A stretch of 64,000 nt of DNA from an uncultured Saprospiraceae bacterium (GCA_937951615.1 CALFBH010000004.1:63228-127227); one strand, 5' to 3'; shown: positions 7,284-51,910, counted from the first letter of the stretch. Notes: generated by a model from the letters alone, not told the origin. Program-made: numbers and translations.

Positions 7284-8639
7284 ATGACAATCGTTTTACC
7301 TATTTCAATCTATATTTTGCGTTGTGTAAAGGTAGTCTTGCTAATTTTCGGAATATTTCAACTAAATTCTTGCGTCATGCCTGAACCTTTTGAATACGTA
7401 GCTCCAGGCAAATGGCGGGCCACACTTCAATTGGAAGAGAAAGTCGGGCCAAAAGAATTTCAGCCGCGCAAGCGTACTGCCGAGTTTGAAATGGAAGAAG
7501 TAACTGATGGAGAATTACCTTTTAATTTTGAAGTCGTTTATGAAAATAAAGAAGACTTTCATATTGATATTTTCAATGGCACAGAACGCATTCGAGTAAA
7601 AAAGGAAGATATTATTGTCGGTAGAAATCTGGCAACAGGTCAGGACACCTTGCTTATTAATTTTCCACATTACGAATCTTATATCAAAGCAATTTATGAA
7701 GAGCGTGTAATGGAAGGCGAATGGGTCGTAGAAACCCGCCCAAATTACCGGATTCATTTCACCGCTTGGCATGGACAAAAACATCGTTTTACTACGCTTC
7801 GTAAAGCCCCCAAAACAGACGTCGGAGGTGAATGGGCAGTGACTTTTTCGGAAGACGATGATCCTTATATTGCGGTAGGTGAATTTCAGCAAGATGGCAA
7901 TCAGTTGGAAGGTACTTTTCGTACCGAAACGGGAGATTTTCGTTATTTAGAAGGAACGGTACAGGCAAATAAGCTCTATTTGTCCTGCTTTGATGGCGCT
8001 CATGCTTTTTTGTATGAAGCTAAAATACTGGAAGATGAATCATTGATTGGAGCGTTTTGGTCGGGCAAACATTATAAAACGACCTGGTCGGCAAAACGCG
8101 ACCCCGATTTCAAACTGACTAGTCCCAATGAGCTGACTTATTTGAAAGAAGGTTATGATAAGCTTAGTTTTAAATTTCCAGACATCAATGGCAAGATGGT
8201 TTCTATTGATGACGAGCAATATAAAGGCAAAGTCAAGCTGGTACAAATACTGGGCACCTGGTGTCCGAATTGCGCAGATGAAACACAGTTTTTATCTGAA
8301 TATTATAATAATCTGAAGTCGGATGACCTCGCTGTTATCGGGCTAGCTTATGAGAAACACCGTGAGCCAGAGAAAGCTAAAGTAGCCATAGAACGATTTA
8401 TTCAGCGTTTTGATGTCCAATATGATGTACTCTTTGCCAATGGTTCTTCGTCCAAACAGGAAGCTGCCGAAACGCTGCCGATGCTTAATGCTGTCATCTC
8501 CTACCCCACGATGATTTTCATTGACAAAAATAATAAAGTCCGACGTATTCATACGGGCTTTGAAGGTCCGGCAACAAGTCGTTATCAAGAATTTACTCAG
8601 GAGTTTGATACTTTTGTAAAAGGATTGCTTGCGGAATGA
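7284..8639 (+). CDS. TlpA-like thiol-disulfide oxidoreductase (thioredoxin fold) with a long N-terminal domain; probable lipoprotein
   Basis: WCPNC redox motif (GTWCPNCADE) in the C-terminal ~150 aa. N-terminal hydrophobic stretch ending in LNSC. Confidence 0.85.
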   Translation: MTIVLPISIYILRCVKVVLLIFGIFQLNSCVMPEPFEYVAPGKWRATLQLEEKVGPKEFQPRKRTAEFEMEEVTDGELPFNFEVVYENKEDFHIDIFNGTERIRVKKEDIIVGRNLATGQDTLLINFPHYESYIKAIYEERVMEGEWVVETRPNYRIHFTAWHGQKHRFTTLRKAPKTDVGGEWAVTFSEDDDPYIAVGEFQQDGNQLEGTFRTETGDFRYLEGTVQANKLYLSCFDGAHAFLYEAKILEDESLIGAFWSGKHYKTTWSAKRDPDFKLTSPNELTYLKEGYDKLSFKFPDINGKMVSIDDEQYKGKVKLVQILGTWCPNCADETQFLSEYYNNLKSDDLAVIGLAYEKHREPEKAKVAIERFIQRFDVQYDVLFANGSSSKQEAAETLPMLNAVISYPTMIFIDKNNKVRRIHTGFEGPATSRYQEFTQEFDTFVKGLLAE

Positions 8640-8643
8640 ACGG

Positions 8644-8746
8644 ATTAAGTTTAAGTTTAAGTATAAGATTAAGTTTAAATTATTACTTTCGTAAAATTGC
8701 TGAATTATGAATAAGTTTAAGTACAAGATTAAGTTTAAGTTTAAAA
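8644..8746. repeat. Two blocks of degenerate hexamer array (TTTAAG/ATTAAG/TATAAG)
   Basis: 8644-8679 reads attaagtttaagtttaagtataagattaagtttaaa. 8711-8746 reads ataagtttaagtacaagattaagtttaagtttaaaa. The reverse-complement word CTTAAACTTAA sits directly upstream of the starts at 31085, 32669 and 36259. Confidence 0.75.
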
Positions 8747-8807: not shown

Positions 8808-8910
8808 AATTACTTACCCTTAATTACTAATAACCAAATAACCAAATACCCCAATTACTAATAACCAATACCCCAGTTACCAAATACCCCAATTCCCTAA
8901 TCACTAATAC
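8808..8910. repeat. Array of AATACCCCAAT / ACTAATAACC words just upstream of the 8920 start
   Basis: The sequence reads ...taattactaataaccaaataaccaaataccccaattactaataaccaataccccagttaccaaataccccaattccctaatcactaatac. Reverse-complement words (ATTGGGGTATT, GGTGATTGG) occur at 11647-11689, 11859-11902, 14480-14492, 28465-28500 and 50134-50200. Confidence 0.75.
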
Positions 8911-8919
8911 ACAACATAG

Positions 8920-11649
8920 ATGAATTCATACCTGACATATTGCAAAGAAAATGGCAGAATAGCCAGAGAGATAGAAGGCAACCTGCGTTCGGCAGGAGCA
9001 GAATTTACGCATGACACACGCGATGAAACCGAACAAAGTCGGCTCAAGCGGGAAATGCGATTAAATCAAAATCCGGTTTTTCTCTTGATTAGCGATAATT
9101 TCCTGAAATCGGCAGAATGCATGCGCGGAGCATTGTCTTTTATTACTGACATGGGAATTGCCAAAAACATTTGCCCGATAATCGTGGATGGTGTGGAAGC
9201 AGATGAGACGACTTATGCGACCAAGATAAAAAAAGCTCAAAAGTATATCGACTATTGGGAGGAAGAATATAAGGAATTGCGCGCTCGAAAGGGCAATATT
9301 TCTCCACAAGAAAAAGAGACCTACAACTGGCGTGTAATGATTGTCAGGCGAATTTCTAATGAAATTGGCACTTTCATGAAGGAGTTAAAAAAACTCAATC
9401 CGGTTCCCTATAAAGATTTTAAAGCGGATAATTTTAAATCCTTTTTTGCTGCACACGGGCTGGCTGATAGTTCTGCTCACCAGAGCTTCACTTCTGTTCC
9501 TACAGAGACCATAATTGTCGAAGAAAAAAAGACCAGTTTTATTCCGCCCATTATTCCTGTAAAAAACCCTTTTGGTAAAAAAACAGACGATATACTAGAA
9601 CTTACACTTGATGGTGATACTACAGAAACGCTTGAAGAAGTTGTAACAGAACAGGCAGCAGAAATTTTGCCAGATGTCCCCGAAGTGGAAGTTCCTGAAA
9701 CGGTAAGCGAAGTACAAGAAAGCATCACAGAAAAAGTGGAGGAGGTCTTGCCCGAAGTTCCCGAAGTCGAAATTCCTGAAACCGTGGCAGAAAAAGTAGA
9801 GGAAGTCTTGCCGGAAGTTCCTGAACCTACAGTTGAGGTAGACGCACAACTTGAGGCTATTGCGGAAGAAGTGAAAACACCTGAAGTAGAAATAGAAACA
9901 CCGACTCTCGAATTTGAAGAAAGCATCACTACAGAAGATGAATTAAAAACTGCCCTTCCTGACGCACTTGAATTTGAAGCGGGTGTTGCACCACCAGTTG
10001 TAGAGGAACTTAGAGTTGAAGACCTCATAGAACAGGAGGAAATCATCATGGAAAATAGTATTCAGGCAGCTCCTGTTCTCGAAGAGAAAGGCAAATTAAG
10101 TTGGCAGGATGCTTATGATGCTGAGGATCGAGGGGAGTATGACTTGGCGCGTGCGCATTATGAAACCTTGTTGGAAAAAACGCCTTATCATGCGGACGGG
10201 CATTTTCATTATGGGATGCTGTTGCTGGAAAAATTTGGGGATAAAGAAGGTGCAAGAAGCCATTTTGAAACTACGGTCAATCAGAAAAGCAAACATACTG
10301 AAGGCTGGGTACAACTGGCTAGACTAGCTGAGCAGGATGAAGATTATCTATTGGCGAAAAGCTATTATGAAAAAGTAGTTGGGCTAGATGCAGAGCATGC
10401 TGATGCGCACTATCGGCTGGGCAATCTTGTTTCCCGTTATTTTGATGATCAGCCGGAAACTGCTGCTGATTATTATAAAAAGACGCTTGAACTCGCGCCC
10501 GACCATGCCGATGCTCATTACGAATATGCTGCCTTATTGAGCGAGCATTTTGAATCTTATGATGAAGCGCGTAAACAATTGGAACAAGTCATCGAGATTA
10601 ATCCAGACCATCCTTTTGCTTATTATGACCTAGCGAAACTGTACCAAAGAAAAGGCAAAAAGAAAACAGCTTATTCTTATTATAAAAAAGCCGTAAAAAC
10701 GAATAGCATTTTCAAAACGGACACCAATGATAAGTTCTTTAAAAAGCCTAAAAAGAAGAAGAAAAAGAAAAAAGCAAATAAGAAGAAGTATAAAGAGTTA
10801 TTGGAAATCCACCATATAGAGCCGGTTTTCCAGCCTGTCGTCGAAGATGTTCAGGAGGAAGAAATCATAGACGAAACGCCAAAGGAATTGATCCTCATCA
10901 CTGGTGCAACCTCTGGAATCGGGGAAGCAACGGCGAGGTTATTTGCCAAAAAAGGACATAATATCATTATTACAGGCAGGCGGCAAGAACGCTTAGAAGA
11001 TTTGCAAAACAATTTGCAAGAAGCCCATGAGGTGCAGGTTCAAACGCTTGCTTTTGATGTCCGCAATCCAAGTGCAGTCGAAAAAGCAATAGACTCACTG
11101 GATGAAGACTGGAAAAATGTAGATATTTTGGTCAATAATGCCGGACTAGCGAAAGGCTTCTCCCCTATCCACGAAGGCTCGCTAGAAGACTGGGAAACGA
11201 TGATCGACACCAATATCAAAGGGCTACTCTATATGACTCGCGCTGTATCGCCGGGCATGGTCGGTCGTGGTGTTGGGCATATTATCAATGTCGGCTCTAG
11301 TGCAGGCAAAGAAGTGTATCCGAATGGCAATGTCTATTGTGGCACCAAACATGCTGTGGAAGCCCTCACACAAGGGATGCGCATGGACTTGGTGAAACAT
11401 GGCTTGCGAGTCAGTTCGGTATCGCCCGGACATGTAGAAACCGAATTTGCTTTAGTCCGTTTTGACGGCAATGAAGAAAGAGCGGATAAAGCCTACGAAG
11501 ATTTCAGTCCGCTGACAGCAGAAGATGTAGCAGAGGTGATTTATTTCATCGTTACTCGCCCAGATCATGTCAATATCCAGGATGTGGCTATGTTTTCAAA
11601 ACAACAAGCTTCTAACATGGTGATTGACCGGAGTGGGAAGGTGGAGTGA
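8920..11649 (+). CDS. Multidomain fusion: TIR-like N-terminus, acidic PE-rich repeats, TPR repeats, poly-Lys linker and a C-terminal classical short-chain dehydrogenase (YdfG-like)
   Basis: The N-terminus SYLTYCKENGRIAREIEGNLRSAG...PVFLLISDNFLKSAECMRGAL resembles the TIR betaA/alphaA and S-x-x-C/E motifs. There are several A/Y-rich TPR-like units (..AHYETLLEKTPYHADGHFHYG..). The SDR part has ITGATSGIGEATA, NNAG and YCGTKHAVEAL. Confidence 0.8.
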   Translation: MNSYLTYCKENGRIAREIEGNLRSAGAEFTHDTRDETEQSRLKREMRLNQNPVFLLISDNFLKSAECMRGALSFITDMGIAKNICPIIVDGVEADETTYATKIKKAQKYIDYWEEEYKELRARKGNISPQEKETYNWRVMIVRRISNEIGTFMKELKKLNPVPYKDFKADNFKSFFAAHGLADSSAHQSFTSVPTETIIVEEKKTSFIPPIIPVKNPFGKKTDDILELTLDGDTTETLEEVVTEQAAEILPDVPEVEVPETVSEVQESITEKVEEVLPEVPEVEIPETVAEKVEEVLPEVPEPTVEVDAQLEAIAEEVKTPEVEIETPTLEFEESITTEDELKTALPDALEFEAGVAPPVVEELRVEDLIEQEEIIMENSIQAAPVLEEKGKLSWQDAYDAEDRGEYDLARAHYETLLEKTPYHADGHFHYGMLLLEKFGDKEGARSHFETTVNQKSKHTEGWVQLARLAEQDEDYLLAKSYYEKVVGLDAEHADAHYRLGNLVSRYFDDQPETAADYYKKTLELAPDHADAHYEYAALLSEHFESYDEARKQLEQVIEINPDHPFAYYDLAKLYQRKGKKKTAYSYYKKAVKTNSIFKTDTNDKFFKKPKKKKKKKKANKKKYKELLEIHHIEPVFQPVVEDVQEEEIIDETPKELILITGATSGIGEATARLFAKKGHNIIITGRRQERLEDLQNNLQEAHEVQVQTLAFDVRNPSAVEKAIDSLDEDWKNVDILVNNAGLAKGFSPIHEGSLEDWETMIDTNIKGLLYMTRAVSPGMVGRGVGHIINVGSSAGKEVYPNGNVYCGTKHAVEALTQGMRMDLVKHGLRVSSVSPGHVETEFALVRFDGNEERADKAYEDFSPLTAEDVAEVIYFIVTRPDHVNIQDVAMFSKQQASNMVIDRSGKVE
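9661..9828 (+). repeat. In-frame acidic tandem repeat (E-V/I-L-P-E/D-V-P-E-V-E-x-P-E-T-V), about 2.5 copies
   Basis: Units at 9661-9711, 9743-9802 and 9803-9828 share gtcttgcc[c/g]gaagttcc[c/t]gaa. Confidence 0.7.
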
Positions 11650-11902
11650 TTGGTGTATTGGTGATTCGTGATTGGTAAATTAGTTGATTAAGTTATTGCT
11701 TATTGAGTGCGTGTTGTCCTCGGTTTCGCTCGGACAAGCGAAGTATCGGTGAATACAATATCGTATAAATAAGATAAAAATCCCAGGTTGCCACGAAGTA
11801 GGCAGCCGCAGGAGAAGTCCCTCTCTGCCGAAGGATGGAGAGGCTAGGTGAGGCATATGGGTGATTGGCTATTGGTAACTGGTTGATTGGAATATTGGTA
11901 GC
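11647..11902. repeat. Complex intergenic repeat region with GGTGATTGG-type word arrays at both ends
   Basis: 11647-11689 reads tgattggtgtattggtgattcgtgattggtaaattagttgatt. 11859-11902 reads gggtgattggctattggtaactggttgattggaatattggtagc. The track ORF 11693..11956 lies inside and looks spurious. Confidence 0.6.
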
Positions 11903-12047: not shown

Positions 12048-12494
12048 TTACCACTTCATATCATCCTCATCGACTGGCTCAGAAGGTGGTTCTGGCTCTG
12101 GGCTGTCAATGGGAGAATCTGTTTGCTCTGGAATAGCATCATCTGCTGGCGTGGTAGAAATACCTGCTGCTTCTGCGGCATCTTCAGCCGCTCTTTTGGC
12201 TTCATATTCTTCATGACGACGTGTATATTCATCATAATCATAATCAGGCATTAAGTCTGTTTTGACATGATTAATAGCCTTATTTAAGCCTGCCATGAAA
12301 CGATTGAAATCTTCTTTGTACAAAAAGATTTTGTGTCGCTCATAACCATCACCGTTGAAGCGGCGCGTGCTTTCCGTTATCGTCAGATAATAATCTTCGC
12401 CACGAGTCTGGCGTACATCAAAAAAATAGGTACGCCGTTTACCGGCACGTATTTTTTCGGAAAAAACACTTTCAAATTTTCGTCTATCGTCCAC
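12048..12494 (-). CDS. PUR-alpha-like nucleic-acid-binding protein (DUF3276 family)
   Basis: FSEKIRAGKRRTYFFDVRQTRGEDYYLTITESTRRF...HKIFLYKEDFNRF matches the DUF3276/PUR repeat pattern. Acidic C-terminal tail. Confidence 0.8.
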   Translation of the reverse strand: MDDRRKFESVFSEKIRAGKRRTYFFDVRQTRGEDYYLTITESTRRFNGDGYERHKIFLYKEDFNRFMAGLNKAINHVKTDLMPDYDYDEYTRRHEEYEAKRAAEDAAEAAGISTTPADDAIPEQTDSPIDSPEPEPPSEPVDEDDMKW

Positions 12495-18547: not shown

Positions 18548-19687
18548 ATGAAATACAAATATGTATTATGCTTCTATCTGGTGTGTGTGTTATTGATTTC
18601 AGGCACTTGCAAGAAAGAAAACTTATTGACACTATTAACATCGTGTACTCACGATTTCAGCGAGGTTGTAAAGAATGAAGAATATAAAGTACTCCCAGCA
18701 CCTTGTCCAACTGGGATATGGTATGAAGAAGAACCACCATTAAGTGCCTATAACTACTACTCTCCTGTTTTCAATCCAAACAATCCAAATCAAATTGCAT
18801 ATATACGCTTTGATACACTTGCGCCATATCAGCAAAAGGGAGCTTTAGAGCTTCATACTTTTGATTTTTGTTCTGGTGAAGTAAGTATTGTAAATAGAGA
18901 TTCTATTGTAAGTTATACTGTAGAGTGGAGTAGTAAAGACTGGCTGTTATACAGAAAATGGTTCAAAGATATTTATAAAATAAAATCGAACGGTCAGTCC
19001 AAAACAAAAGTTGTTGATACATATATTAGTTTAAGCCAGAATCGCATTCCCATTTGGAGCGGCTCAGGTGATCATTTAGCCTGGTCAGGTGATGAACGAC
19101 CATTAATATACGGACTTTATGATAACAGCACCTGTGGTTTTGTGATTATGAACGAAAACGGTATGAAAGTCGACACCATATCCGAGTTTTGCAAGGTAGT
19201 TCCAAGCGGAGGTGTTCTATTTCAGAATTTTAATCTGAATCTTGAAATTGCCGACCATTTTTCATGGAGCAAAGACAACACAAAAATAGCTTGCGATGCA
19301 AGTGCCTATGTAGATTATCTATATTTATACGGCTTATTTTATTATGATTTTACTTTAGATGAAATAGTTTTTGTAGATGACCTGAATGCTTACCCTTGGT
19401 ACGGCAAAGTCACCGACACCGACTGGACACCCGACAGCCGAAAACTGGTGTGGAGTACGGAGCGCAGCGTCGGTTGGAAAGACATCTATTCCGGCGAAAG
19501 AAAAATCATCCTCACCGGACATGAAAACAGAAAGTATGAAAGCATAGATGTATCGCCCGACGGCAAAACCATTGCCATAGAACGCCTGAACAGGGTAAAC
19601 GTAAACGGCTGCACCAAAGTGGAACGAGCTATTTATCTGGTGAATATGGACGGCACGGATGAACGAAGGGTTTTGGTACCAGAGTAA
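18548..19687 (+). CDS. TolB/PD40-like beta-propeller lipoprotein, paralog A
   Basis: Signal/lipobox-like MKYKYVLCFYLVCVLLISGTC. PD40-like SPDGKTIAIERL and TPDSRKLVWS. Shares FNPNNPNQIAY and IYKIKSNG blocks with the next ORF. Confidence 0.7.
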   Translation: MKYKYVLCFYLVCVLLISGTCKKENLLTLLTSCTHDFSEVVKNEEYKVLPAPCPTGIWYEEEPPLSAYNYYSPVFNPNNPNQIAYIRFDTLAPYQQKGALELHTFDFCSGEVSIVNRDSIVSYTVEWSSKDWLLYRKWFKDIYKIKSNGQSKTKVVDTYISLSQNRIPIWSGSGDHLAWSGDERPLIYGLYDNSTCGFVIMNENGMKVDTISEFCKVVPSGGVLFQNFNLNLEIADHFSWSKDNTKIACDASAYVDYLYLYGLFYYDFTLDEIVFVDDLNAYPWYGKVTDTDWTPDSRKLVWSTERSVGWKDIYSGERKIILTGHENRKYESIDVSPDGKTIAIERLNRVNVNGCTKVERAIYLVNMDGTDERRVLVPE

Positions 19688-19802
19688 TTCATTTATCAGG
19701 GTTCATTTATCATTTCCAATAGGGCGTGTTCATTTTCTAATAGATGTGTACAAGTTCTGTATGATAAATGTTAAATGGTCAATGATAAATGTTCAATGAC
19801 AA

Positions 19803-20780
19803 ATGAACATGAAAACAACAACTTTTATTATTGCGATAAGCATCAGCTTATGTGCCTGTTCTTCCGCATTTTTTGCCTGCGAACAAGAATCTTTGGATGA
19901 CATTATTGACCATTGTCTGTTCAATAACACAGAACTTTTAGAAGACCATAATATACTTGGGTCCAGTAGCGGAATGCAGCAATGGCAGGTACTCGGCCCA
20001 GACTACCAGCATCCGCACTTCAACCCAAACAACCTCAATGAAATTGCTTTTCAGAAAAGCCGGGAAATATGGATTATAGATATGTGCACAGGAGAAAAAC
20101 GACTACTGATACCAGACTATGTCTCCAGCCTCTGGGACTGGGGCAAGACCGACTGGCTGATTTATACCAATACCGGCATGGATTTGTACAAAATAAAATC
20201 CAATGGCGACAGCCTGACCCGATTGACCACTTATGGCATATACAACACAAATGCACTCTTCAACTCTACAGGGGATAAGTATGTGTATAGAAAAATCATG
20301 GACGCCGAGGGTTTTTCGATTATTGCTAACCTTGACGGTGTTCATCTGGATACTATCGGTGGCCCTATGCGCTCGGACAGGATGCATTGGTTTGAAGATG
20401 GGAGATTATGTGGCAGAAACAGCGAAGGCATTGGATTTATTGACATTGCTTCTTTTGAAATGACCGCAATCGATTTTATTTATCTTCACTTCACCGTATA
20501 TGGGGCGCATTATTTGTATGATGATGCAAGTATTCTGTGGGGTACAAAGCAGTATTTGTTTCGTACAAATGTCGATACAGGCGAGCGTGCTATCATCAAA
20601 CAAGGAAGTGTTTCGCAGGTTTACCGAGAGTTTGATGTATCGCCCGACCAAAGTACGATTTTGGTCATTCGCTCCGATATGACACCTGGCTCGCCGAGTT
20701 ATATTATTGAGGAACGCAAACATCTCTGCCTGATGGATATTGACGGGCGGCATGAGCGACGGATGATGATTGACTGGTAG
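19803..20780 (+). CDS. TolB/PD40-like beta-propeller lipoprotein, paralog B
   Basis: Signal peptide ending SLCACSS. Blocks FNPNNLNEIAF, LYKIKSNGDS and SPDQSTILV parallel 18548..19687. Confidence 0.7.
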   Translation: MNMKTTTFIIAISISLCACSSAFFACEQESLDDIIDHCLFNNTELLEDHNILGSSSGMQQWQVLGPDYQHPHFNPNNLNEIAFQKSREIWIIDMCTGEKRLLIPDYVSSLWDWGKTDWLIYTNTGMDLYKIKSNGDSLTRLTTYGIYNTNALFNSTGDKYVYRKIMDAEGFSIIANLDGVHLDTIGGPMRSDRMHWFEDGRLCGRNSEGIGFIDIASFEMTAIDFIYLHFTVYGAHYLYDDASILWGTKQYLFRTNVDTGERAIIKQGSVSQVYREFDVSPDQSTILVIRSDMTPGSPSYIIEERKHLCLMDIDGRHERRMMIDW

Positions 20781-22062: not shown

Positions 22063-22986
22063 ATGAATTACACAGTAAAAATTATTTTGTTGGGCTGTAT
22101 GTCTATTTTATTGACTGCCTGCATTAGTAAAAAAGAATACGCAAAAATCCAGACTCAACTCGCTGATGCCAATAAAAATCTGGATGAGTATGGAGAGACG
22201 GTCAATGATTATATGACAAAATTATCTGCCTGCGAAAGAAATGCAGAAAAACTCAAAGGACAGGTAAAAAGTGCCAAGGGCAATCTCAAGTTGCGCGAAG
22301 AGCAAATTAAGGATTTGAAAGATCAGGTTTCGGATGTCCGCACACAACGCGACAAGCAGTTCAATCAGGTGGACGACCTGACCGTTCTGACTCAGGAAGC
22401 CAACCAGAATATTGAAAAGACCTTATCTCAATTAGAGCGCAAAGACAAGTACATCCAATATATACAGGAAGCCAAAACCAAGGCAGATTCTATGAATTTG
22501 GCATTGGCTGTCAATCTGAAAAGTGTATTGGAAGACGGCATTTCTGATGCAGATGTACAGGTAGAAGTGGATAAAACAGTGGTTTTTGTAAACCTATCCG
22601 ACAAAATGTTATTCCACAGTGGCAGCTCTATCGTCACACAAAGAGCAGATGAAGTACTGGGTAAAATTGCTAAAATTATTCAGTCGCGTCCTACCCTAGA
22701 AGTGATGGTGGAAGGCTATACAGATAATGTGCAAATCAGCCGCCCTTGCATGGAAGACAATTGGGATTTGAGTGTCAAACGCGCTACTGCGGTTGTTCGC
22801 AAATTGCACAAAGAGCATAATGTAAATCCTAATCGCCTGATTGCTGCCGGACGTGGAGAGTATAATTCGCTTACGCTAAATGATACAGAAGCCGGACGCG
22901 CCATGAATCGCCGGACACGCATTATCATTCTGCCAAAACTAGATGAGTTTTACGAATTGCTTGATCCTAATAATGTGCCGAAATAA
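22063..22986 (+). CDS. OmpA/MotB-family lipoprotein with an N-terminal coiled coil
   Basis: Lipobox LLTAC. OmpA_C motifs VEGYTDN, NWDLSVKRATAV and NRRTRIIILP. Confidence 0.88.
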   Translation: MNYTVKIILLGCMSILLTACISKKEYAKIQTQLADANKNLDEYGETVNDYMTKLSACERNAEKLKGQVKSAKGNLKLREEQIKDLKDQVSDVRTQRDKQFNQVDDLTVLTQEANQNIEKTLSQLERKDKYIQYIQEAKTKADSMNLALAVNLKSVLEDGISDADVQVEVDKTVVFVNLSDKMLFHSGSSIVTQRADEVLGKIAKIIQSRPTLEVMVEGYTDNVQISRPCMEDNWDLSVKRATAVVRKLHKEHNVNPNRLIAAGRGEYNSLTLNDTEAGRAMNRRTRIIILPKLDEFYELLDPNNVPK

Positions 22987-23001
22987 TTAATTATGAATGT
23001 G

Positions 23002-23063
23002 TTAATTACGAATTACGAATCTACGTCCAATTCGTAATTATCAGATTCGTAATTCGTAATTAA
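23002..23063. repeat. Perfect 19-bp-stem hairpin built from AATTACG heptamer words
   Basis: ttaattacgaattacgaat (23002-23020) pairs perfectly with attcgtaattcgtaattaa (23045-23063). Related copies at 40063-40135 and 50205-50252. Confidence 0.8.
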
Positions 23064-23068: not shown

Positions 23069-23614
23069 ATGAAATATATTTCCATGCTTCGCGGCATCAA
23101 TGTCGGCGGTAGAAAGAAGATCAAAATGGCTGAACTTCGGGAGATGTATGTCGCCCTTGGTTTTGAGGACGTGAACAGTTATATCCAAAGTGGCAATGTT
23201 GTTTTTGACTATAAAAAAACGAAGCCCGCTGAACTGGAAGCACAGATTAAACAAGCCATTCAGGATACTTTTGGCTTTGATGTTCCAGTACGCATCAGGA
23301 CAGCGGACGACTTTAAGCACATCATCAATAGCCATCCATTTTTTGATGCGGAGCAGGAATTGAAATTATTTCACGTTACTTTTTTGGCGGAAGCCCCAAA
23401 TACTGAAGCCCTTCAAAGCATTGCTGATTTCCAATATAAAGAAGATCTTTTTCAAATTGATGGAGACAAGATACACCTCTACTGCCCCGGAGGATATGGG
23501 GAAACTAAGCTATCCAATAATTTTTTCGAGCGTAAGCTCAAAGTTTCTGCTACAACTCGAAATTGGAAGACTGTTTTGAAATTATATGAAATGGCTATTG
23601 CGGATTGTCCATAG
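23069..23614 (+). CDS. DUF1697 family protein
   Basis: N-terminus MKYISMLRGINVGGRKKIKMAELR is the DUF1697 hallmark. Confidence 0.85.
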   Translation: MKYISMLRGINVGGRKKIKMAELREMYVALGFEDVNSYIQSGNVVFDYKKTKPAELEAQIKQAIQDTFGFDVPVRIRTADDFKHIINSHPFFDAEQELKLFHVTFLAEAPNTEALQSIADFQYKEDLFQIDGDKIHLYCPGGYGETKLSNNFFERKLKVSATTRNWKTVLKLYEMAIADCP

Positions 23615-23743
23615 TCCATAGTCCATAGTCCGCAGTCGATGGTTGTTTGATGGATAAAAAAATGAATTCATTCATTTTTCACACATTTTGCGAAGCAAAA
23701 TAACATGCATTTTCTATCGACCATGGACCATGGACTATCGACC
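23608..23743. repeat. Hairpin element E1: heptamer-word arms plus a TTTTGC-N3-GCAAAA core
   Basis: Left arm is tccatagtccatagtccatagtccgcagtcgatgg. Core is cattttgcgaagcaaaat (23684-23701). Right arm is ctatcgaccatggaccatggactatcgacc. Confidence 0.8.
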
Positions 23744-23752
23744 AAAACCAAG

Positions 23753-30965: not shown

Positions 30966-31013
30966 AAAATGTCAAAAAGCATTAGTGGTTCAAAAAATAA
31001 AAATGCAAAAAAT

Positions 31014-31084
31014 CAACTATGGACTATCGACCATCGACTATGGACGTAAACACTTAAACTTATTCTTAAACTTAAACTTAAAAA
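31014..31084. repeat. Heptamer array (CTATGGAC/TATCGAC/CATCGAC) followed by CTTAAACTTAA words directly upstream of the 31085 start
   Basis: The sequence reads caactatggactatcgaccatcgactatggacg ... cacttaaacttattcttaaacttaaacttaaaaa. Confidence 0.75.
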
Positions 31085-31828
31085 ATGTTCAGATTAGACA
31101 ATCAAATTGCCATCGTAACAGGTGGCGCGAGAGGCATTGGAGAAGGCATTGCCCAGGTATTTTGCAAAGCTGGCGCGACCGTATATATGTGGGATGTGCT
31201 GGATAGCGGTCAACAAGCTGCCGACAAAATCAACGCAGCAGGCGGGAATGCTTTTTTTAGAAAAGTAGATATCACCTCAAAAGAATCCGTAGAAACTGTA
31301 GTTGCAGAAATTATCGACAAGCATGGAAAAATTGATGTTCTCATCAATAATGCAGGCGTCATTCGCGACCGTTCTATTATGAAAATGACGGAAGCAGAAT
31401 GGAACACGGTTATCAATGTCAATATCAATGGGCTTTTTATCACCACAAAAGCTGTGCTCCCGCACATGCGCGAGGCTGGTTATGGTCGCATCGTCTGTGC
31501 TTCTTCTATCAATGCTGTTAATGGTGCATTTGGGCAAACCAATTATAGCGCATCCAAAGCTGCGACCAGCGGTTTTGTCCGTTCATTGGGCAGAGAAGTT
31601 GGCAAATATGGCATCACCGCCAATGCCGTCGCACCAGGCTTCATCAAATCCGAAATGACGGACAGTATGCCGGATGAAATTGTAAAAGCAGGCATCGCCA
31701 TGATTCCCGTCAAGCGTATCGGAACACCAGAAGATATGGGACACGTCTATTTATTCCTCGCTTCTAAGGAGGCTGGTTTTGTCAATGGAATTACTTTGCA
31801 TGCCAATGGTGGTGTATTGCCATTATAA
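31085..31828 (+). CDS. Short-chain dehydrogenase/reductase, 3-oxoacyl reductase (FabG-like)
   Basis: TGGARGIGEG, NNAG and YSASKAA motifs. Confidence 0.88.
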   Translation: MFRLDNQIAIVTGGARGIGEGIAQVFCKAGATVYMWDVLDSGQQAADKINAAGGNAFFRKVDITSKESVETVVAEIIDKHGKIDVLINNAGVIRDRSIMKMTEAEWNTVINVNINGLFITTKAVLPHMREAGYGRIVCASSINAVNGAFGQTNYSASKAATSGFVRSLGREVGKYGITANAVAPGFIKSEMTDSMPDEIVKAGIAMIPVKRIGTPEDMGHVYLFLASKEAGFVNGITLHANGGVLPL

Positions 31829-31830: not shown

Positions 31831-31954
31831 CAGTCCATAGTCCGCAGTCGATAGTCGATGGCTGTTTTTTTAGTGTTCATGTCATTTCAGTATTTCATTT
31901 TGCTTTGCAAAATGTCTTATTTTTCCATCGACTATGGACCATCGACCATCGACC
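31831..31954. repeat. Hairpin element E2 (same family as E1 and E3)
   Basis: Left arm is cagtccatagtccgcagtcgatagtcgatggctg. Core is cattttgctttgcaaaatg (31896-31914). Right arm is ccatcgactatggaccatcgaccatcgacc. Confidence 0.8.
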
Positions 31955-32502: not shown

Positions 32503-32645
32503 TTGATTCGTCGGTTTCGTAAACTTGCGGGTGGGGGGGTGAATAGGGAGTTTGCTAAACCTTCTATGTTTCCCAATGGCAGGTTTAGCAAACTCGCATC
32601 CCGCAAAGCCTTCGCACAAGTTTACGAAACCGATGCAGGTTGATT
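32501..32645. repeat. Nested double hairpin with two perfect 15-bp stems
   Basis: Outer stem cggtttcgtaaactt (32512-32526) pairs with aagtttacgaaaccg (~32619-32633). Inner stem gagtttgctaaacct (32548-32562) pairs with aggtttagcaaactc (32581-32595). Confidence 0.8.
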
Positions 32646-32668
32646 TCCATTTAAATTTAAACTTATTT

Positions 32669-34180
32669 ATGCCTATTCAAACAGGAGAAGAATATATCCA
32701 CTCTTTGCGAAATCGCAATTTAAAGGTCTATCTATTTGGCGAACTTGTGGAAGAACCCGTCGACCACCCAATGATTCGCCCGTCGATTAATGCGCTGGCA
32801 AAGACTTATGATCTTGCGGTAGCTGCTCCCGAACTCGCATCCGTCATCTCTCCATTTACTGGAAAGCGAGTCAGTCGTTTTTTACATATTTGTACCAGTG
32901 CAGATGAATTGGTTTTGCAAAACAAAATGCAACGAAAACTGGGACAATTGACTGGCACTTGTTTTCAACGCTGCGTGGGCATGGATGCTTTCAATTCATT
33001 ATACTCTGTCACCTATGAAATGGATGAACATCATGGTACAACTTATCACAAACGCATGAAGGCTTTTCTGACGATGATGCATCAGCATAATTATGTCGTT
33101 GGCGGAGCAATGACTGATGTAAAAGGCGACCGTAGCCTTGCCCCACATCAGCAGGCTGACCCTGATATGTTTGTGCATATTGTCAAAAGAAGCAAAAAAG
33201 GCGTTTGGATCAGTGGTGCAAAAGCCCATCAAACGGGTTGTATCAATTCGCACTGGATGATTGTGATGCCTACGATGCGGCTGGGCGAAGCAGATAAGGA
33301 CTTTGCGATAGTCGGTGCTGTTCCTGTGGATGCTGAGGGAATTACTTACATCTATGGTCGGCAATCCTGTGATACGCGCAGTATGGAGGGCGGCAGCATA
33401 GACGTTGGTAATGCACAATATGGCGGACAGGAAGCCATGGTTATTTTTGACCAGGTTTTTATTCCCAATGAATATATTTTCATGGATGGTGAATACGATT
33501 TTGCTGCTATGCTGGTCGAGCGATTTACAGCTTATCACCGCAGAAGTTATGTGTGCAAAACAGGGCTGGGCGATGTATTGATTGGCGCGGCGGCTTCCAT
33601 TGCAGAGATGAATGGCATTCCCAAAGCTTCTCATATCAAAGACAAATTGGTGGAAATGACGCATCAAAACGAAACTATTTATGCCACTGGAATTGCTGCA
33701 TCTCATCAGGGTTATGCGACGAAGTCGGGCAACTATATATGTGATGGTATGCTGGCGAATGTCTGCAAACATCATGTTACCAAAATGCCTTTTGAGTTGG
33801 CGCGACTCGCGCAGGATATTGCTGGCGGACTGGTTTCTACACTGCCTTCGGAGAAGGATTTAAACCATCCTGAAATTGGAAAATTATTGCATAAATACTT
33901 GCGTGGCAAAGCAGATGTAAAAACAGAAGACCGAGTTCGCATACTGCGACTGATTGAAAACTTAACGATGGGTCGTAATGCGGTGGGCTACCTGACCGAG
34001 AGTATGCACGGAGCAGGTTCGCCACAGGCACAACGCATACAGATTGGTCGGCTGATGCAATTGGAATATAAAAAAAGACTGGCAGCTATTCTGGCCGGCA
34101 TTGAAGTGGAGACGGATAAAGATTTATTAGTTGAGGAGTTATCCGGTTATTTTAAAAGAGTCTTTAAAATTTCGACATAA
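32669..34180 (+). CDS. abfD: 4-hydroxybutyryl-CoA dehydratase / vinylacetyl-CoA isomerase family (AbfD-type)
   Basis: Collinear with my recollection of Clostridium AbfD. Matching blocks are MPIQTGEEYIHSLR, VDHPMIRPSINA, TGTCFQRCVGMDAFN (Cys ligand region), GGAMTDVKGDRSLAP, YGRQSCDTR, ESMHGAGSPQAQRI. The start at 32669 is preferred. The track start 32552 extends through the hairpin repeat. Confidence 0.88.
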   Translation: MPIQTGEEYIHSLRNRNLKVYLFGELVEEPVDHPMIRPSINALAKTYDLAVAAPELASVISPFTGKRVSRFLHICTSADELVLQNKMQRKLGQLTGTCFQRCVGMDAFNSLYSVTYEMDEHHGTTYHKRMKAFLTMMHQHNYVVGGAMTDVKGDRSLAPHQQADPDMFVHIVKRSKKGVWISGAKAHQTGCINSHWMIVMPTMRLGEADKDFAIVGAVPVDAEGITYIYGRQSCDTRSMEGGSIDVGNAQYGGQEAMVIFDQVFIPNEYIFMDGEYDFAAMLVERFTAYHRRSYVCKTGLGDVLIGAAASIAEMNGIPKASHIKDKLVEMTHQNETIYATGIAASHQGYATKSGNYICDGMLANVCKHHVTKMPFELARLAQDIAGGLVSTLPSEKDLNHPEIGKLLHKYLRGKADVKTEDRVRILRLIENLTMGRNAVGYLTESMHGAGSPQAQRIQIGRLMQLEYKKRLAAILAGIEVETDKDLLVEELSGYFKRVFKIST

Positions 34181-34199: not shown

Positions 34200-34344
34200 G
34201 TCCATAGTCGATGGTCGATAGTCCATGGCTAATTTAACAATATTCCTAATTTCTACAGGTTTTATGCGCATTTTGCAAAGCAAAATGAAATACTAAAATG
34301 ACCTGATTACTAAAAAGACAGCCATCGACCATCGACTATTGACC
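34200..34344. repeat. Hairpin element E3, inverted copy of the E2 core
   Basis: Left arm is gtccatagtcgatggtcgatagtccatggc. Core is cattttgcaaagcaaaatg (34269-34287). Right arm is gccatcgaccatcgactattgacc. Revcomp of 34265-34340 matches E2 31850-31914 over ~75 nt with few mismatches. Confidence 0.8.
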
Positions 34345-34420
34345 ATTTTTGACGGGCCAGCGCCACCACAGCATTTTAGTTTTAAAGCATTGTTGTACAA
34401 GGGAAAAGCTTTTTTTATTT

Positions 34421-36190: not shown

Positions 36191-36258
36191 AAAACTTTGA
36201 AAGCAATCGTGTAGTTTTAAGCTTAATCTTAAACTTGCACTTAAACTTAATTACAACC

Positions 36259-37734
36259 ATGACCATATACACTATATTTGGAATTTGTGCAGTAGCAGCA
36301 CTGGTATTGACCGTTTTATTCGGTGTAGTTCTGAAAAGAAAACCGCACAACTGGCTGATGCTATTCTTGCAGCAGTTTGTTGGTTCTTTATTGATTTTTT
36401 CCGGCTATGTGAAAGCTATTGACCCGAAGGGAACCGTTTATAAAATGGAGCAATATTTTGCTGAATTTGAAAGTGCTGTTGTGGCACCGATTTCAGGCAT
36501 CTTTCCCTTTCTGGCGGAAATGGGGCTGACTTTTTCTATTGCCACTATTGTACTTGAACTCGTGCTGGGCATTTGTTTGATTTTTGGGATCAAGCGCAAA
36601 TTTACGGTTTGGGCTTTATTGCCGATGCTGATCTTTTTTACTTTGCTTACTGGCTTCACTTATCTGACTTCCTACTCGGTCGAGTCGCTGGCTTTTATGT
36701 CTATCATCACGGCAGTTGTGCTGCTGGGTGGTGGGGCTTTATTTGCAAGAGAACGCAAGACCAAAATCGGCTTAGGGATTGGAGCGATTGCAGCCATTGT
36801 GATTATCAATTTACTGATGAAAGAAGGCTATTCCTGGTGGTTCAATTTTGCTGATTGGGAGTATGATAAGAATAAAATGAAGGTGACAGACTGTGGTTGT
36901 TTTGGTGATTTTTTGAAGCTGGAACCTAAAGTCTCTTTCATCAAAGACCTGATTTTGCTACCTATCTCTATCTGGTTTGTAATGGGTTGGCGCAATTTGA
37001 CGGAAGTCGTAGAAAAACGTTCTATCGCTACTGGACTTTTCTGGGGGGCAATTGTATTATCGACTTTATTCTGTTTGAAAAATAGTATTTGGGGCTTGCC
37101 ACAAAGTGATTTCCGCCCATTTGCCGAAGGCATCAACCTACCAGAAGCTAAACAGATCGCCTTGGATGACACGGACATTATAGATCGTTATCTGACCTAT
37201 AAAAACAGTGAAACTGGTGAAGCCGTCGAAATCAAATCTGATGCACTGATGGACAATCAGCACCTTTGGAAAAAGCCGACGCCCTGGGAAGCTGTCAAAG
37301 AAAAAACTCGTGAGGTTGTCATCAAAAAAGGTAGTGATTCCAAGATTAAAGATTTTGAATTTAGCAATGCAGAAGGTGCGGATGTGTCGCATGAAGTCGG
37401 CGCAGCGGGTTATCAATTCATGGTTATTTCATACAGTATGGAAAAAGCCAATCGCAAGTATTTCAAATCGGTGAACGCCATTGCAGCAGCAGCCGAGAAA
37501 GACGGGCATCGCACTTTTGGCATCACACAAATTGCCGATCCTACTGATGTAGATAAATTCCGACATGACTTGCAGGCAGGCTATCCGTTTTATACCGCAG
37601 ATGATATTTTATTGAAAACTATTATCCGGTCAAATCCTGGTGTTTTGTTGCTTAAAGATGGTACGGTTCTCAAGAAATGGCATGGACGCAACCTGCCAGA
37701 CTACAATACGATTAAGCAAGAATATGGGCTTTAG
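36259..37734 (+). CDS. DoxX/MauE-like membrane protein fused to a C-terminal soluble (thioredoxin-like?) domain
   Basis: Multiple TM helices and a DCGCFGDFLK motif typical of MauE/DoxX. The start at MTIYTIFG (36259) is preferred. The track start 36235 lies in the CTTAAACTTAA repeat. Confidence 0.75.
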   Translation: MTIYTIFGICAVAALVLTVLFGVVLKRKPHNWLMLFLQQFVGSLLIFSGYVKAIDPKGTVYKMEQYFAEFESAVVAPISGIFPFLAEMGLTFSIATIVLELVLGICLIFGIKRKFTVWALLPMLIFFTLLTGFTYLTSYSVESLAFMSIITAVVLLGGGALFARERKTKIGLGIGAIAAIVIINLLMKEGYSWWFNFADWEYDKNKMKVTDCGCFGDFLKLEPKVSFIKDLILLPISIWFVMGWRNLTEVVEKRSIATGLFWGAIVLSTLFCLKNSIWGLPQSDFRPFAEGINLPEAKQIALDDTDIIDRYLTYKNSETGEAVEIKSDALMDNQHLWKKPTPWEAVKEKTREVVIKKGSDSKIKDFEFSNAEGADVSHEVGAAGYQFMVISYSMEKANRKYFKSVNAIAAAAEKDGHRTFGITQIADPTDVDKFRHDLQAGYPFYTADDILLKTIIRSNPGVLLLKDGTVLKKWHGRNLPDYNTIKQEYGL

Positions 37735-40068: not shown

Positions 40069-40740
40069 ATGAATGGTTTAATTACGAATTACGAATCCCA
40101 AGAAATAGTTAAACCCATTCGTAATTCATTCATTAATAATTATAAGGTGAAATACATTACATTACTTATCGCCACCCTGTTCAGCTTATCTCTTTCTGCA
40201 CAAAGTTTCAAAAAAATAATTTGTGAGCACAGAAAAGAATATAAAGAAGGTTTCAAAGAAGAAGGTTCGCCGCTCAAGCCGAATGAGATTCGGTATTTGA
40301 AATTCTACAAGCCCGACGAAGCTTATCAAGTCCCTGCTGACTTCAAACGTACATTCGGTGAAAAGCCATTTGATATGGTGACTTCTAGCGGTAAAAAGAA
40401 ACGTTATGTAAAATATGGAGAGCTAAGTTTTGAGCTTAAAGGAACAGCTATCACGCTTGCCTTATATCAAAGCCTGAAACTTATGTCCATGCCTCAATAT
40501 AAAGAATACCTGTTTTTGCCTTTCAAGGACTCAACAAATGGGCAGGAAACTTATAGTGCCGGGCGATATATAGACTTGGAAATGTCGGACATTAAAAACG
40601 ATAAAGTGACGCTTGATTTTAACAAGACTTATAATCCTTACTGCGCTTATACGACTGGCTATAATTGCCCGTATCCACCAGCAGAAAATCATTTGACCAT
40701 GCCGATTTATGCAGGAGAAAAGATGTTTGGAAAGAAATAG
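40069..40740 (+). CDS. DUF1684 family protein (secreted)
   Basis: C-terminal YNPYCAYTTGYNCPYPPAENHLTMPIYAGE is the DUF1684 motif. An in-frame GTG at 40147 gives MKYITLLIATLFSLSLSAQ and may be the true start. The ATG at 40069 lies in the AATTACG repeat. Confidence 0.8.
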   Translation: MNGLITNYESQEIVKPIRNSFINNYKVKYITLLIATLFSLSLSAQSFKKIICEHRKEYKEGFKEEGSPLKPNEIRYLKFYKPDEAYQVPADFKRTFGEKPFDMVTSSGKKKRYVKYGELSFELKGTAITLALYQSLKLMSMPQYKEYLFLPFKDSTNGQETYSAGRYIDLEMSDIKNDKVTLDFNKTYNPYCAYTTGYNCPYPPAENHLTMPIYAGEKMFGKK

Positions 40741-40844
40741 TTAAATTCAAATTCAAACGTCAAATACAAATTCAAAGATAACAAACTTCAATTATAGGTA
40801 TTACCGTAGGCTTTCCATCAAACATGTCTGCTACATGGCTAAAT

Positions 40845-49244: not shown

Positions 49245-50117
49245 TCAAATATGACGCTCCGCATGATAGGAAGAGCGTACCAGCGGCCCACTTTCTACAT
49301 AATCAAAACCTTTTTTCAGCCCAACTTCCTTATACATCGCAAAAGTATCAGGGTGGACAAAAGACTCCACATTCAGGTGCAGCTTGGTCGGTTGTAGGTA
49401 CTGACCAATCGTGAGGACATCGCAGCCATGGGCTACTAGATCATCCATGATAGCTAATACTTCTTCGTCTGTTTCTCCTAAGCCGACCATGATGCCGGAT
49501 TTAGTGCGTTTGCCATAAGATTTGGTGCGTTGGATTTGTTCGAGACTTCGGTCGTATTTGGCTTGTGGACGTACTTTTCTATATAGACTTTTGACCGTTT
49601 CCATATTATGAGAAACGACTTCTTGTCCAGGGCTTATCATCGTTTCCAATGCTTCCCAATTAGCACGTACATCTGGAATTAGTGTTTCAATAGTCGTATC
49701 GGGTGATAGGTTTTTGACTTCCTGTACTGTAGCATGCCAAATCGCTGCACCTCGGTCTTTCAGCTCATCCCGATTGACAGAAGTGATGACGGCATGTTTG
49801 ACACCCATTAGTTTGATGGCTTCGGCTACTCGATAGGGTTCATCTTCGTCGTATTCATTTGGTCGCCCGGTTTTCACTGCACAAAACGAACAGGAACGGG
49901 TGCAGGTATTTCCCAAAATCATAAAAGTCGCTGTACCTTCTCCCCAACATTCGCCCATATTCGGACAATGCCCACTTTGACATATCGTATTCAGTTTATA
50001 CTCATCAACAATATTCCGCACATTGCGATACGTTTCTCCCATCGGAAGTTTTACGCGCAACCAATCGGGCTTTTTTTTCCGCTCTTCTTTTCTATCTACT
50101 ACTGGTAAGTCTATCAT
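49245..50117 (-). CDS. lipA: Lipoyl synthase
   Basis: Radical-SAM and auxiliary cluster motifs [12 protein letters not shown] and [10 protein letters not shown]. Full-length 290 aa. Confidence 0.95.
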
Positions 50118-50133
50118 TTTCTTTTATTGAGTG

Positions 50134-50250
50134 TGTTGGGGGTTGGGTGTATTGGGGTATTGGGGTGATTGGGGTGATTGGGGTGATTGGGTAATTGAAT
50201 ATTTGTAACTAGCAATTCGTAATTAACCCATTCATAATTCGTAATTAAAT
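50134..50250. repeat. Tandem 8-9-nt array (ATTGGGGTG) followed by AATTCGTAATTA words, upstream of lipA
   Basis: gtattggggtattggggtgattggggtgattggggtgattgggtaattg, then ..caattcgtaattaacccattcataattcgtaattaaa. Confidence 0.8.
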
Positions 50251-51205: not shown

Positions 51206-51487
51206 ACAAAATAAAACAATATAAAGCCATGCTTGTTTGTCGGGGTGGTGTCATTCTCCAAAATTTTCTGGCTAAATTGACTGCTAAATGGCTATATTGG
51301 GAACACAGGTACAGGACAAATTTGTAGATGGGTTATTTTTCTCGCAAAGACGCAAAGCCGCAAAGTTTGTTTTCTCTTAAGTTTTCGCGCCTTAGCAAGA
51401 GATTTTTCACCAAACTTTATGCTGACACCCTGTGCACATTTATTCTGGTTTCTGACAAACTGTCCACAGATAACTAATACCAATTTT

Positions 51488-51892
51488 ATGACAACAGAAA
51501 TTATTTACGCCGGCGACTTGCATACAGATGCAAGGCATATTCGATCTGGCAATATCATTCAGACCGATGCACCAACTGACAATAATGGAAAAGGAGAAGC
51601 TTTTTCGCCGACCGACCTGGTAGCTGCGGCATTGGGTTCATGTGTGCTGACGATTATGGGCATTGCAGCCCGCAATCACAATATTGATATGACTGGCGCG
51701 ACGGCACAAGTCAATAAGGTGATGTTAGCCAATCCACGCCGTATTGGTAAGCTGGAAGTCATGATTCAGATGCCTGAAGGGAATTTTACGGAAAAGGAAA
51801 AGAAAATTCTGGACAAGGCAGCTCATGGCTGTCCGGTCAAACAGAGTTTGCATCCTGACTTGGAGGAAACGATTATTATTAAGTGGCAGTAG
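51488..51892 (+). CDS. OsmC/Ohr-family peroxiredoxin-like protein
   Basis: FSPTDLVAAALGSCVLT and HGCPV motifs. The ATG at 51488 (MTTEIIYAG) is preferred over the track start. Confidence 0.85.
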   Translation: MTTEIIYAGDLHTDARHIRSGNIIQTDAPTDNNGKGEAFSPTDLVAAALGSCVLTIMGIAARNHNIDMTGATAQVNKVMLANPRRIGKLEVMIQMPEGNFTEKEKKILDKAAHGCPVKQSLHPDLEETIIIKWQ

Positions 51893-51910
51893 CAATATCA
51901 ATATCAATAT

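Follow-up and report, generated by a model that had tools for sequence, protein, structure and literature searches.

The spacers between genes in a 64,000-nt stretch of bacterial DNA (GCA_937951615.1, CALFBH010000004.1:63228-127227; hereafter the window), and in the whole genome to which it belongs, carry tandem arrays of short words whose strand follows the nearest end of an open reading frame (ORF). Within a word family, one and the same form points away from the ORF at stops and at starts alike, in an arrangement that is two-fold symmetric around ORFs. This form, read 5'->3' away from the nearest ORF end, is called X, and its reverse complement rcX. The arrays themselves are of a known but unexplained kind, the intergenic heptamer-type simple sequence repeats (SSRs) that include the short tandemly repeated repetitive (STRR), GGGNATC and TAACTGA sequences. 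A preliminary description of the window had proposed an orientation-aware intergenic grammar. The oriented spacer rule in that proposal is borne out, with the spacer or element rather than the gene as its unit and without a tie to the direction of transcription.

Orientation of word arrays relative to ORF ends

The genome (6.96 Mb, 40% G+C, 142 contigs, completeness rating 100%) was searched as a whole with Tandem Repeats Finder (TRF), and the chance level was obtained by shuffling each spacer. Genes were mapped as the longest ORFs ranked by a codon-usage score, giving 4,816 genes with approximate start positions. TRF reports 5,361 clusters genome-wide, 3,391 of them intergenic and thus within ~15% of the genome, with periods of 7 (1,118), 8 (797), 6 (495) and 9 (198). 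Arrays of period 5-12 number 2,216 in the spacers and 260 in shuffled spacers, and at a TRF score of at least 50 the corresponding numbers are 508 and 3. They occupy 10% of spacer DNA, are present in 46% of spacers with equal colonisation of convergent, divergent and co-directional ones, and fall into more than 40 word families. This tandem-repeat and k-mer census places the arrays far above shuffled spacers and shows them to be oriented relative to genes. The individual arrays that the preliminary description had listed in the window are all present in the sequence and in the TRF output, at or within a few bases of where it had put them.

The orientation bias that had been claimed from the window holds genome-wide. 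On the coding strand, C exceeds G in start-nearest arrays by 859:519, and G exceeds C in stop-nearest arrays by 734:381 (Fisher p=6e-45). Within single families the bias is far stronger than this plain G-versus-C bias. The GGTGATT family follows stops 49:2, CGATGGT follows stops 42:7 with its complement before starts 41:9, and AAGTTT follows stops 45:9 with AAACTT before starts 66:17. The earlier wording, in which C-rich or AAAC-type words precede starts and G-rich or TTTAAG-type words follow stops, fits most families but not those of AAATTC type, of which the C-bearing form AAATTC follows stops (97:17) and GAATTT precedes starts (63:14). In every family the start-side form is the reverse complement of the stop-side form, and the rule can therefore be stated without reference to transcription.

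Family polarities learned on half of the contigs are obeyed by 80% of the arrays on the other half (625:159), with a held-out conformity of 83% in single-array spacers and 93% in convergent spacers, and conformity reaches 87-90% at a TRF score of at least 40. When polarity is learned only at stops, it predicts the arrays at starts by 524:164, and the same stop-learned rule holds by 53:11 for arrays in divergent spacers that have no inverted partner and lie within 25 nt of the ORF. In a TRF-free comparison, hexamers in the 60 nt beside stops and in the 60 nt beside starts have outward strand biases that are positively correlated (r=0.585). The correlation would be negative for a rule linked to transcription, and its positive sign thus argues against such a link. 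Exact-word censuses give 101:21 for AAATTC repeated 2.5 times and 51:6 for AATGATG repeated twice, while a 32-nt AATTACG element is polar by 32:8, and 28 of its 40 copies have their 5' end no more than 10 nt from an ORF. X arrays as a whole lie at a median distance of 8 nt from the ORF at their 5' end and 113 nt at their 3' end, and the ORF ends behind them comprise 624 stops and 502 starts. An artefact of ORF calling was considered and rejected, since arrays absorbed into ORF ends are equally polar (28:8 at 3' ends, 31:6 at 5' ends); no hidden pool of opposite-orientation arrays was found within called ORF ends. In several start-side cases read by eye, the array continues up to a plausible ATG.

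Base composition follows the rule in most families. Outward G exceeds C in 31 of the 37 skewed families, and the six others, which include the AAATTC group, have the opposite sign with the same symmetry. A plain G-versus-C rule therefore describes a majority of families and was rejected as the whole rule. Composition, with outward forms richer in G, GT and TG, predicts the sign of left-out families in 33 of 41 cases. Spacer DNA outside the arrays, read outward, has G at.165 and C at.128 at starts, and.185 and.168, respectively, at stops. On the sense strand, ATG and GTG together are depleted before starts (422:185) and stop-bearing frames are commoner after stops (384:210).

The host is a member of the Bacteroidota, probably Saprospiraceae-like. 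Its placement in this phylum follows from the absence from the genome of a photosynthetic reaction-centre gene (Photo_RC) together with the presence of at least 150 type IX secretion system (T9SS) sorting (tail) domains, and the best named relatives of a 909-aa protein encoded in the window (8920..11649) are from Saprospiraceae, including Saprospira grandis, at 35-46% identity. On these grounds a Nostocales cyanobacterium, a host that the arrays could suggest because heptamers of this sort are well known in that group, was rejected. No 16S rRNA gene, nor any rRNA gene at all, was located in the 142 contigs of the assembly; arrays of the kind described here may account for the assembly breaks.

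Comparison with same-genus genomes (G001, G003 and G005), whose coding DNA is ~72-76% identical in the region of the window, shows that words turn over between congeners and that the orientation rule persists. The spacer before 8920 measures 280 nt here and 9, 54 and 64 nt in the three congeners, and in one congener the spacer before the orthologue holds another word (TGGATAA) with its own hairpin. After the orthologue of 8920..11649, one congener has a GCGAGTT-type array, one a plain terminator only and one a short GC hairpin only. (In G001 this orthologue is apparently split into two ORFs.) In 260 kb of G005 and 211 kb of G003 the array density is as here and the dominant words differ, while ORF-abutting arrays have outward G>C by 56:9 and 37:10, respectively. 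Few families are shared with other genomes, and polarity transfers to these by exact family in 9 of 12, 12 of 16 and 7 of 10 cases. In a census of this genome (G000) and its relatives G001, G015, G017, G019 and G028, the exact 17-mer AATTACGAATTACGAAT has 136 copies here, 22 in one congener, 3 in another and 0 in three. It also occurs in 4-23 copies in scattered genera and families of the order. A reversed control word is almost never found. This distribution suggests horizontal spread or repeated amplification of one word. The grammar, first described as genome-specific, is so in its words; the rule is kept by G003 and G005 with mostly other words and has been published for other phyla. A rule that survives the turnover of its words points to a general mechanism or constraint.

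Hairpins within spacers

The strong association between arrays lies inside spacers. Same-family inverted pairs account for 210 of 841 adjacent pairs inside one spacer, against 31 +/- 5 by permutation, and for 37 of 827 pairs across one gene, against 21.8 +/- 4.8 expected, and the unit of organisation is therefore the spacer, not the gene. A number of colonised spacers fold into long, AT-rich, imperfect hairpins with the word arrays as arms, several of them with the apex TTTTGC-N3-GCAAAA, and in several examples a canonical terminator lies distal to the arrays. Of the apexes adjoining X arrays, 180 sit at the 3' end and 5 at the 5' end, and some apexes are flanked by arms of different word families. 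The hairpins also have a handedness, measured independently of gene calls and family labels. In 194 adjacent same-family inverted pairs the G-rich arm comes first, with a median gap of 40 nt, and in 29 the C-rich arm does, with a median gap of 641 nt; the latter pairs span a gene. Among the 187 pairs with a gap of at most 300 nt, 179 are G-first and 8 are C-first. A solitary array is present in 1,248 of the 1,904 colonised spacers.

When the arrays of the window are compared with the polarity learned outside it, 17 conform, 4 do not and 10 cannot be assigned. The main features are as follows, with minimum free energy given as MFE.

8643..8744, plus strand: two arrays of AAGTTT/TTAAGT hexamers in the outward (X) form, 4 nt past the stop of 7284..8639 (TRF).
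8829..8909, minus strand: A/C-rich words AATAACCA / ATACCCCAAT / ATACCCCAATTACT, ending 10 nt before the ATG at 8920; the G/T-rich X form is on the minus strand and reads away from 8920..11649 (sequence, TRF).
8920..11649, plus strand: gene described as bracketed, encoding the 909-aa protein with weak TIR-like, TPR and short-chain dehydrogenase (SDR) domains (Pfam).
11646..11676, plus strand: (GTGATTG)n array of the GGTGATT family, X form, overlapping the TGA stop at 11647-11649 (TRF).
11858..11900, plus strand: second G-rich GGTGATT-type array in the same convergent spacer (TRF).
19688..19806, hairpin with ATCATTT-type and AAATGAT-type arms, occupying the whole spacer between 18548..19687 and 19803..20780; array called at 19761-19806 (MFE -29.5 kcal/mol; TRF).
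22990..23063, AATTACGAAT / ATTCGTAATT hairpin, filling the spacer between 22063..22986 and 23069..23614 (TRF, fold).
23607..23744, hairpin element with convergent genes on either side: GTCCATA/GTCGATG arm, TTTTGC-N3-GCAAAA apex, complementary arm (fold, MFE -41.8 kcal/mol).
31012..31082, minus strand: solitary A/C-type arms abutting the start of 31085..31828, with CTATGGAC/TATCGAC words at 31012-31045 followed by ACTTAA hexamers at 31052-31082 (TRF, fold).
31831..31954, hairpin element right after the stop of 31085..31828: GTCCATA/GTCGATA arm, apex TTTTGCTTTGCAAAA (about 31898-31912), CCATCGA arm (fold).
34200..34346, hairpin element of the same family and apex as 31831..31954, after the stop of 32552..34180 (TRF, fold).
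36217..36250, minus strand: AAACTT-type hexamers, abutting or overlapping the called start of 36235..37734 (TRF).
40743..40776, plus strand: AAATTC/TCAAAT hexamers, 3 nt past the stop of 40069..40740, with a C-bearing outward form (TRF).
50125..50197, plus strand: (GGGTGATTG)n array, 8 nt from the start of the minus-strand gene 49245..50117 and C-rich on the coding strand of that gene (TRF, fold).
51882..51979, CAGTAT / ACTGTA hexamer-armed hairpin, taking up the whole convergent spacer between 51419..51892 and 51987..53999 (MFE -39.3 kcal/mol, TRF).
53899..54030, hairpin built of GAATGAGT/GTTGATT arms and their complements around the TTTTGCTTTGCAAAA apex, between 51987..53999 and 54030..56027 (TRF, fold).

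The array at 11858..11900 abuts no ORF; it lies 148 nt from the stop of 12048..12494 and breaks the rule for that gene. Between it and the array at the stop of 8920..11649, positions 11690-11860 hold other dispersed repeats, including a hairpin GTTGTCCTCGGTTTCGCTCGGACAAGC and a block of ~70 nt, CCCAGGTTGCCACGAAGTAGGCAGCCGCAGGAGAAGTCCCTCTCTGCCGAAGGATGGAGAGGCTAGGTGAGGC, both of which reappear beside arrays elsewhere in the genome, as seen in the printed array flanks. Rfam gives no match within the window.

Some of the hairpins enclose a gene. The genome contains 11 PF05635 genes, and 6 of these have an X-type array on the left and a complementary rcX array on the right. Flank inverted-repeat scores reach 44-54 at three of these six, and only 1.4% of 300 control small genes reach 40. 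These genes thus occupy the apex position, and the arrays around them are opposite in sense to the arrays at ordinary genes, as would be expected if the centre of the element sets the polarity. PF05635 is similar to Avd, which serves diversity-generating retroelements (DGRs) as an accessory protein, and none of the three reverse transcriptases in the genome is adjacent to a PF05635 gene. The intervening-sequence cassettes of 23S rRNA likewise carry a PF05635 four-helix-bundle (Avd-like) ORF. Like those cassettes, the copies here are small PF05635 genes between long complementary arms, made of word arrays in 6 of 11; unlike them, they lie between ordinary genes, and most hairpins here are gene-less. 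One PF05635 gene (G000:C31:98062-98532) is an exception to the cassette pattern, with (TTCGATA)n flanks in direct rather than inverted orientation.

Possible origins of the rule

We favour, with a probability of roughly 0.45, an origin from chiral hairpin elements with slippage-prone arms, whose orientation is further filtered by expression constraints. The arrays would be arms, some in pairs and some alone, that belong to hairpin elements of one handedness, in which a G/T-rich 5' arm (X) and an A/C-rich 3' arm (rcX) surround the TTTTGC-N3-GCAAAA apex or, in at least six cases, a PF05635 gene. Because such an element reads alike on both strands, X would point outward from the left and the right ORF whatever the direction of the genes, and a gene between two colonised spacers would then look bracketed. 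Ordinary genes would lie outside hairpins and PF05635 genes inside them. The elements may spread as units and change in length by slippage, with solitary arms as possible remnants or half-elements that keep their side, and selection would further filter orientation, leaving little G and no ATG or GTG on the sense strand immediately before a start.

Several observations weigh against this reading. The gene starts rest on a crude ORF map. Polarity is equal in arrays without an inverted partner within 200 nt (83%) and in arrays with one (80-83%), and descent from hairpins alone therefore does not explain the rule. A recognisable apex lies beside only ~10% of the arrays, and no transposase or insertion signature was found for them. 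The most abundant families, AAATTC, AATTACG and AATATCG, do not obey the compositional filter, and the growth gradient along arrays is weak (lag identity 0.738 vs 0.753, p=0.03). Finally, the AAATTC array that forms part of a dispersed 105-nt element, described below, is weakly polar (32:18), and stand-alone AAATTC arrays are polar by 98:17.

Other candidates for the source of the polarity were rejected. The mere geometry of hairpin pairs is contradicted by the equal polarity of solitary, partnerless arrays; directional array growth, by a unit-identity gradient that is barely detectable; start-codon avoidance plus stop provision as the full explanation, by its failure for the most abundant families; and the 105-nt element, which resembles a miniature inverted-repeat transposable element (MITE), by its own weak polarity.

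An expression filter acting alone, in which arrays arise or land either way and selection keeps the tolerated orientation, is in our view unlikely. Bacteroidota do not rely on Shine-Dalgarno pairing for initiation, and under this filter the sense strand upstream of a start would have to be G-poor, unstructured and free of AUG and GUG for initiation without Shine-Dalgarno. Downstream of a gene, the G/T-rich form would provide stops in three frames, since 7 and 8 are not multiples of 3, and the start-side and stop-side pressures would happen to favour complementary forms. Much of the composition described above is consistent with such a filter: the outward G>C sign of 31 of 37 families and its prediction in left-out families, the weaker skew of the same sign in spacer DNA outside arrays, the depletion of ATG and GTG before starts and the excess of stop-bearing frames after stops. 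The dominance of periods 7 and 8 in the spacers and the outward G>C of congeners with other words point the same way. The filter does not account for the AAATTC family, however, in which the stop-free form follows stops and GAATTT, with TGA and TTG, precedes starts, and AATTACG and AATATCG behave like AAATTC. Polarity is also stronger at stops (83-93%) than at starts (76%), even though the case made from stops is the weaker of the two. Selection has no means of flipping a hairpin that is palindromic, yet among close pairs G-first outnumbers C-first by 179:8.

Still less likely, we think, is a directional grammar in which the arrays are one-way signals acting on RNA polymerase or RNA. Reading outward would stop or mark transcripts. 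Reading inward would yield a C-rich, G-poor tract free of start codons, which would load Rho on untranslated antisense RNA and on sense RNA would be covered by initiating ribosomes; paired arrays would serve as processing or termination hairpins. Such signals would fit one form pointing outward at both kinds of ORF end and an inward strand poor in ATG and GTG at both. In several examples the arrays lie between the stop and a separate canonical terminator and are thus probably transcribed, and most repeats of this kind are transcribed in Xanthomonas (Rehm et al. 2015, PMC4692102). The same study found no regulatory role for them. The quick turnover of words and the orthologous spacers that are often array-free argue against an indispensable signal, solitary arrays are without terminator-like structure, and the AAATTC group has the opposite G/C sign.

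The handedness of the hairpins, together with the ORF-anchored solitary arms, could also be a signature of strand-specific synthesis, for example by addition to a free 3' end and fold-back priming at the apex, in which the Avd-like PF05635 proteins inside some hairpins might take part. The chance of this is slim. In its more specific version, to which we give a slimmer one, repeats would be added to a free 3' end, or would slip there, and the G/T-rich strand would thereby grow 5'->3' in the direction of the spacer's middle. This might take place on both sides of a break, or on a single-stranded copy, folded back at the apex, that acts as primer for its complementary strand. X-apex-rcX hairpins would result, along with solitary X arms whose anchor is the last essential sequence. 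Polar synthesis of this sort would explain the two-fold symmetry, the handedness at gaps of at most 300 nt, the equally polar solitary arms, the mixed-family arms around one apex and the position of the apex at the 3' end of X, and the hairpin-enclosed PF05635 genes do resemble the Avd of DGR reverse transcriptases. It is a speculative idea, however: the three reverse transcriptases are not beside PF05635 genes, dozens of word families would need many templates, and the unit-identity gradient is weak. If strand-specific synthesis were true, the heptamer arrays of different phyla would be traces of a mechanism, not described so far, that makes or heals DNA, and would be neither slippage products nor binding sites.

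Pairing between the two ends of one mRNA, through complementary arrays upstream and downstream of the same gene, was suggested by the bracketed genes 8920..11649 and 31085..31828 and has very little to recommend it. Both genes do have the opposite-orientation words on their two sides, and the arrays are complementary. The array at 8829-8909 forms a duplex of -41.8 kcal/mol with 11640-11700, against -28.4 +/- 4.5 for shuffles, and the arrays flanking 31085..31828 likewise give -41.8 kcal/mol. Genome-wide, bracketing is weak: the across-gene excess given above is small, and a common family is present in 4.5% of the genes with arrays on both sides. Stop-side arrays of unrelated genes pair as well as the gene's own in 9% of cases for 8920..11649 and 5% for 31085..31828, the arm downstream of 31085..31828 can pair inside the spacer where it lies (duplex -29.4 kcal/mol), and the rule is equal at divergent and convergent spacers. 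Long-range 5'-3' pairing per gene, one of the possibilities raised in the preliminary description, does not withstand this calculation, and end-to-end pairing of one mRNA is not the organising principle. Generic AT-rich, low-complexity spacer DNA without a real orientation rule can practically be dismissed, since shuffles, cross-validation, exact-word censuses and replication in congeners all contradict it, even if ~12% of the calls at the lowest TRF threshold could be background (260 vs 2,216).

Relation to known repeats and other dispersed elements

Bacterial tandem heptamer arrays date from 1990 in the literature and, to our knowledge, have gone unexplained. The cyanobacterial STRR heptamers, reportedly described by Mazel et al. 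in that year, resemble the present arrays in that many tandem heptamer families share the non-coding DNA of one genome, and differ in their host, which here is one of the Bacteroidota. We know of no ORF-relative polarity rule stated in the STRR papers.

Closer precedents come from two later studies, in which polarity has already been published for single families and for TAACTGA repeats. Heptamer SSRs, GGGAATC in Xanthomonas and GGGGA(C/T)T in Nostoc PCC 7120, lie within ~50 nt of an ORF, in sense after stops and antisense before starts in any gene orientation (Rehm et al. 2015, PLoS One, PMC4692102). They frequently form convergent inverted pairs capable of stem-loops, vary in length and sequence among close relatives and have no function that was found. 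The arrays here share with these repeats their intergenic 7-nt units, position, strand preference, convergent pairs and variation between relatives. There, however, a single G-rich family per genome is read in terms of G-quadruplexes, whereas the Bacteroidota host here has more than 40 families, mostly without G-runs and some with the opposite G/C sign, and the rule is cross-validated per family, with handedness and PF05635 enclosure quantified. TAACTGA direct repeats were described in Beggiatoaceae, cyanobacteria and five Bacteroidetes (MacGregor 2015, Front Microbiol, PMC4679880). Their arrays end a few nucleotides before start codons, with a stop-adjacent set in Flexibacter litoralis that is reversed; they contain stops in all frames in one orientation and are patchy across phyla, with long arrays in some Bacteroidetes. 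They too are intergenic heptamers near starts with the reverse orientation at stops. Unlike the arrays here, they consist of a single word, are mostly start-proximal and were read as a binding site of a translational regulator, and neither a symmetric rule nor a hairpin architecture was described for them (PMC4679880).

The present case contributes its scale, with over 40 families spread through about half of the spacers in one genome, a rule that holds per family with two-fold symmetry and persists through word turnover, the near-absolute handedness of the hairpins, and confirmation of PF05635 genes inside hairpins in a Saprospiraceae-like genome. In practical terms, the arrays lengthen spacers and can lead the calling of start codons astray, and they are a probable cause of breaks in the assembly.

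Repetitive extragenic palindromic (REP) sequences, their hairpin-forming doublets (REPINs) and bacterial interspersed mosaic elements (BIMEs), associated with the REP-associated tyrosine transposases (RAYTs), are a further class of extragenic palindromes (Bertels and Rainey 2011, PMC3116915). Like REP/REPIN sequences, the arrays are short extragenic repeats near gene ends that occur as inverted doublets of fixed arrangement, forming hairpins, and as singlets. Unlike them, their units are 6-9-nt words without self-complementarity and not imperfect palindromes of 20-40 nt, and only pairs of arrays form hairpins. The genome has three genes for Y1 transposases (Y1_Tnp). Two of these, the IS200/RAYT-like genes G000:C37:2824-3276 and C38:28603-28941, have at their flanks a GC-rich REP (AAGCCCTGAAAGGGC, AAGCCCTGAAAGGGCGAAA) that differs from the word arrays. 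Only the C38 copy also has a second hairpin and octamer arrays of (GAAACCAC)n on both sides, in direct orientation, and is a possible link between REP-type hairpins and word arrays.

The arrays differ from MITEs, which have a fixed length, terminal inverted repeats and target-site duplications, in that they vary in length and are without terminal inverted repeats. A separate dispersed element of 105 nt, TAAGTGG-AAATACAAATCCAAACGTCAAATTCAAATTCAAA-AAACTATTGACAATAAGCCAATTAGTCAAATTGAAAGTGGCGTTTAGTTGAGTCCAAGCACTTA, occurs at G000:C129:9395-9499, at C4:172274-172378 and in ~60 other full-length copies. The copies are 93-99% identical, have short inverted termini (TAAGTG) and carry an AAATTC array; judged by this architecture, the element looks like a MITE or a small RNA gene.

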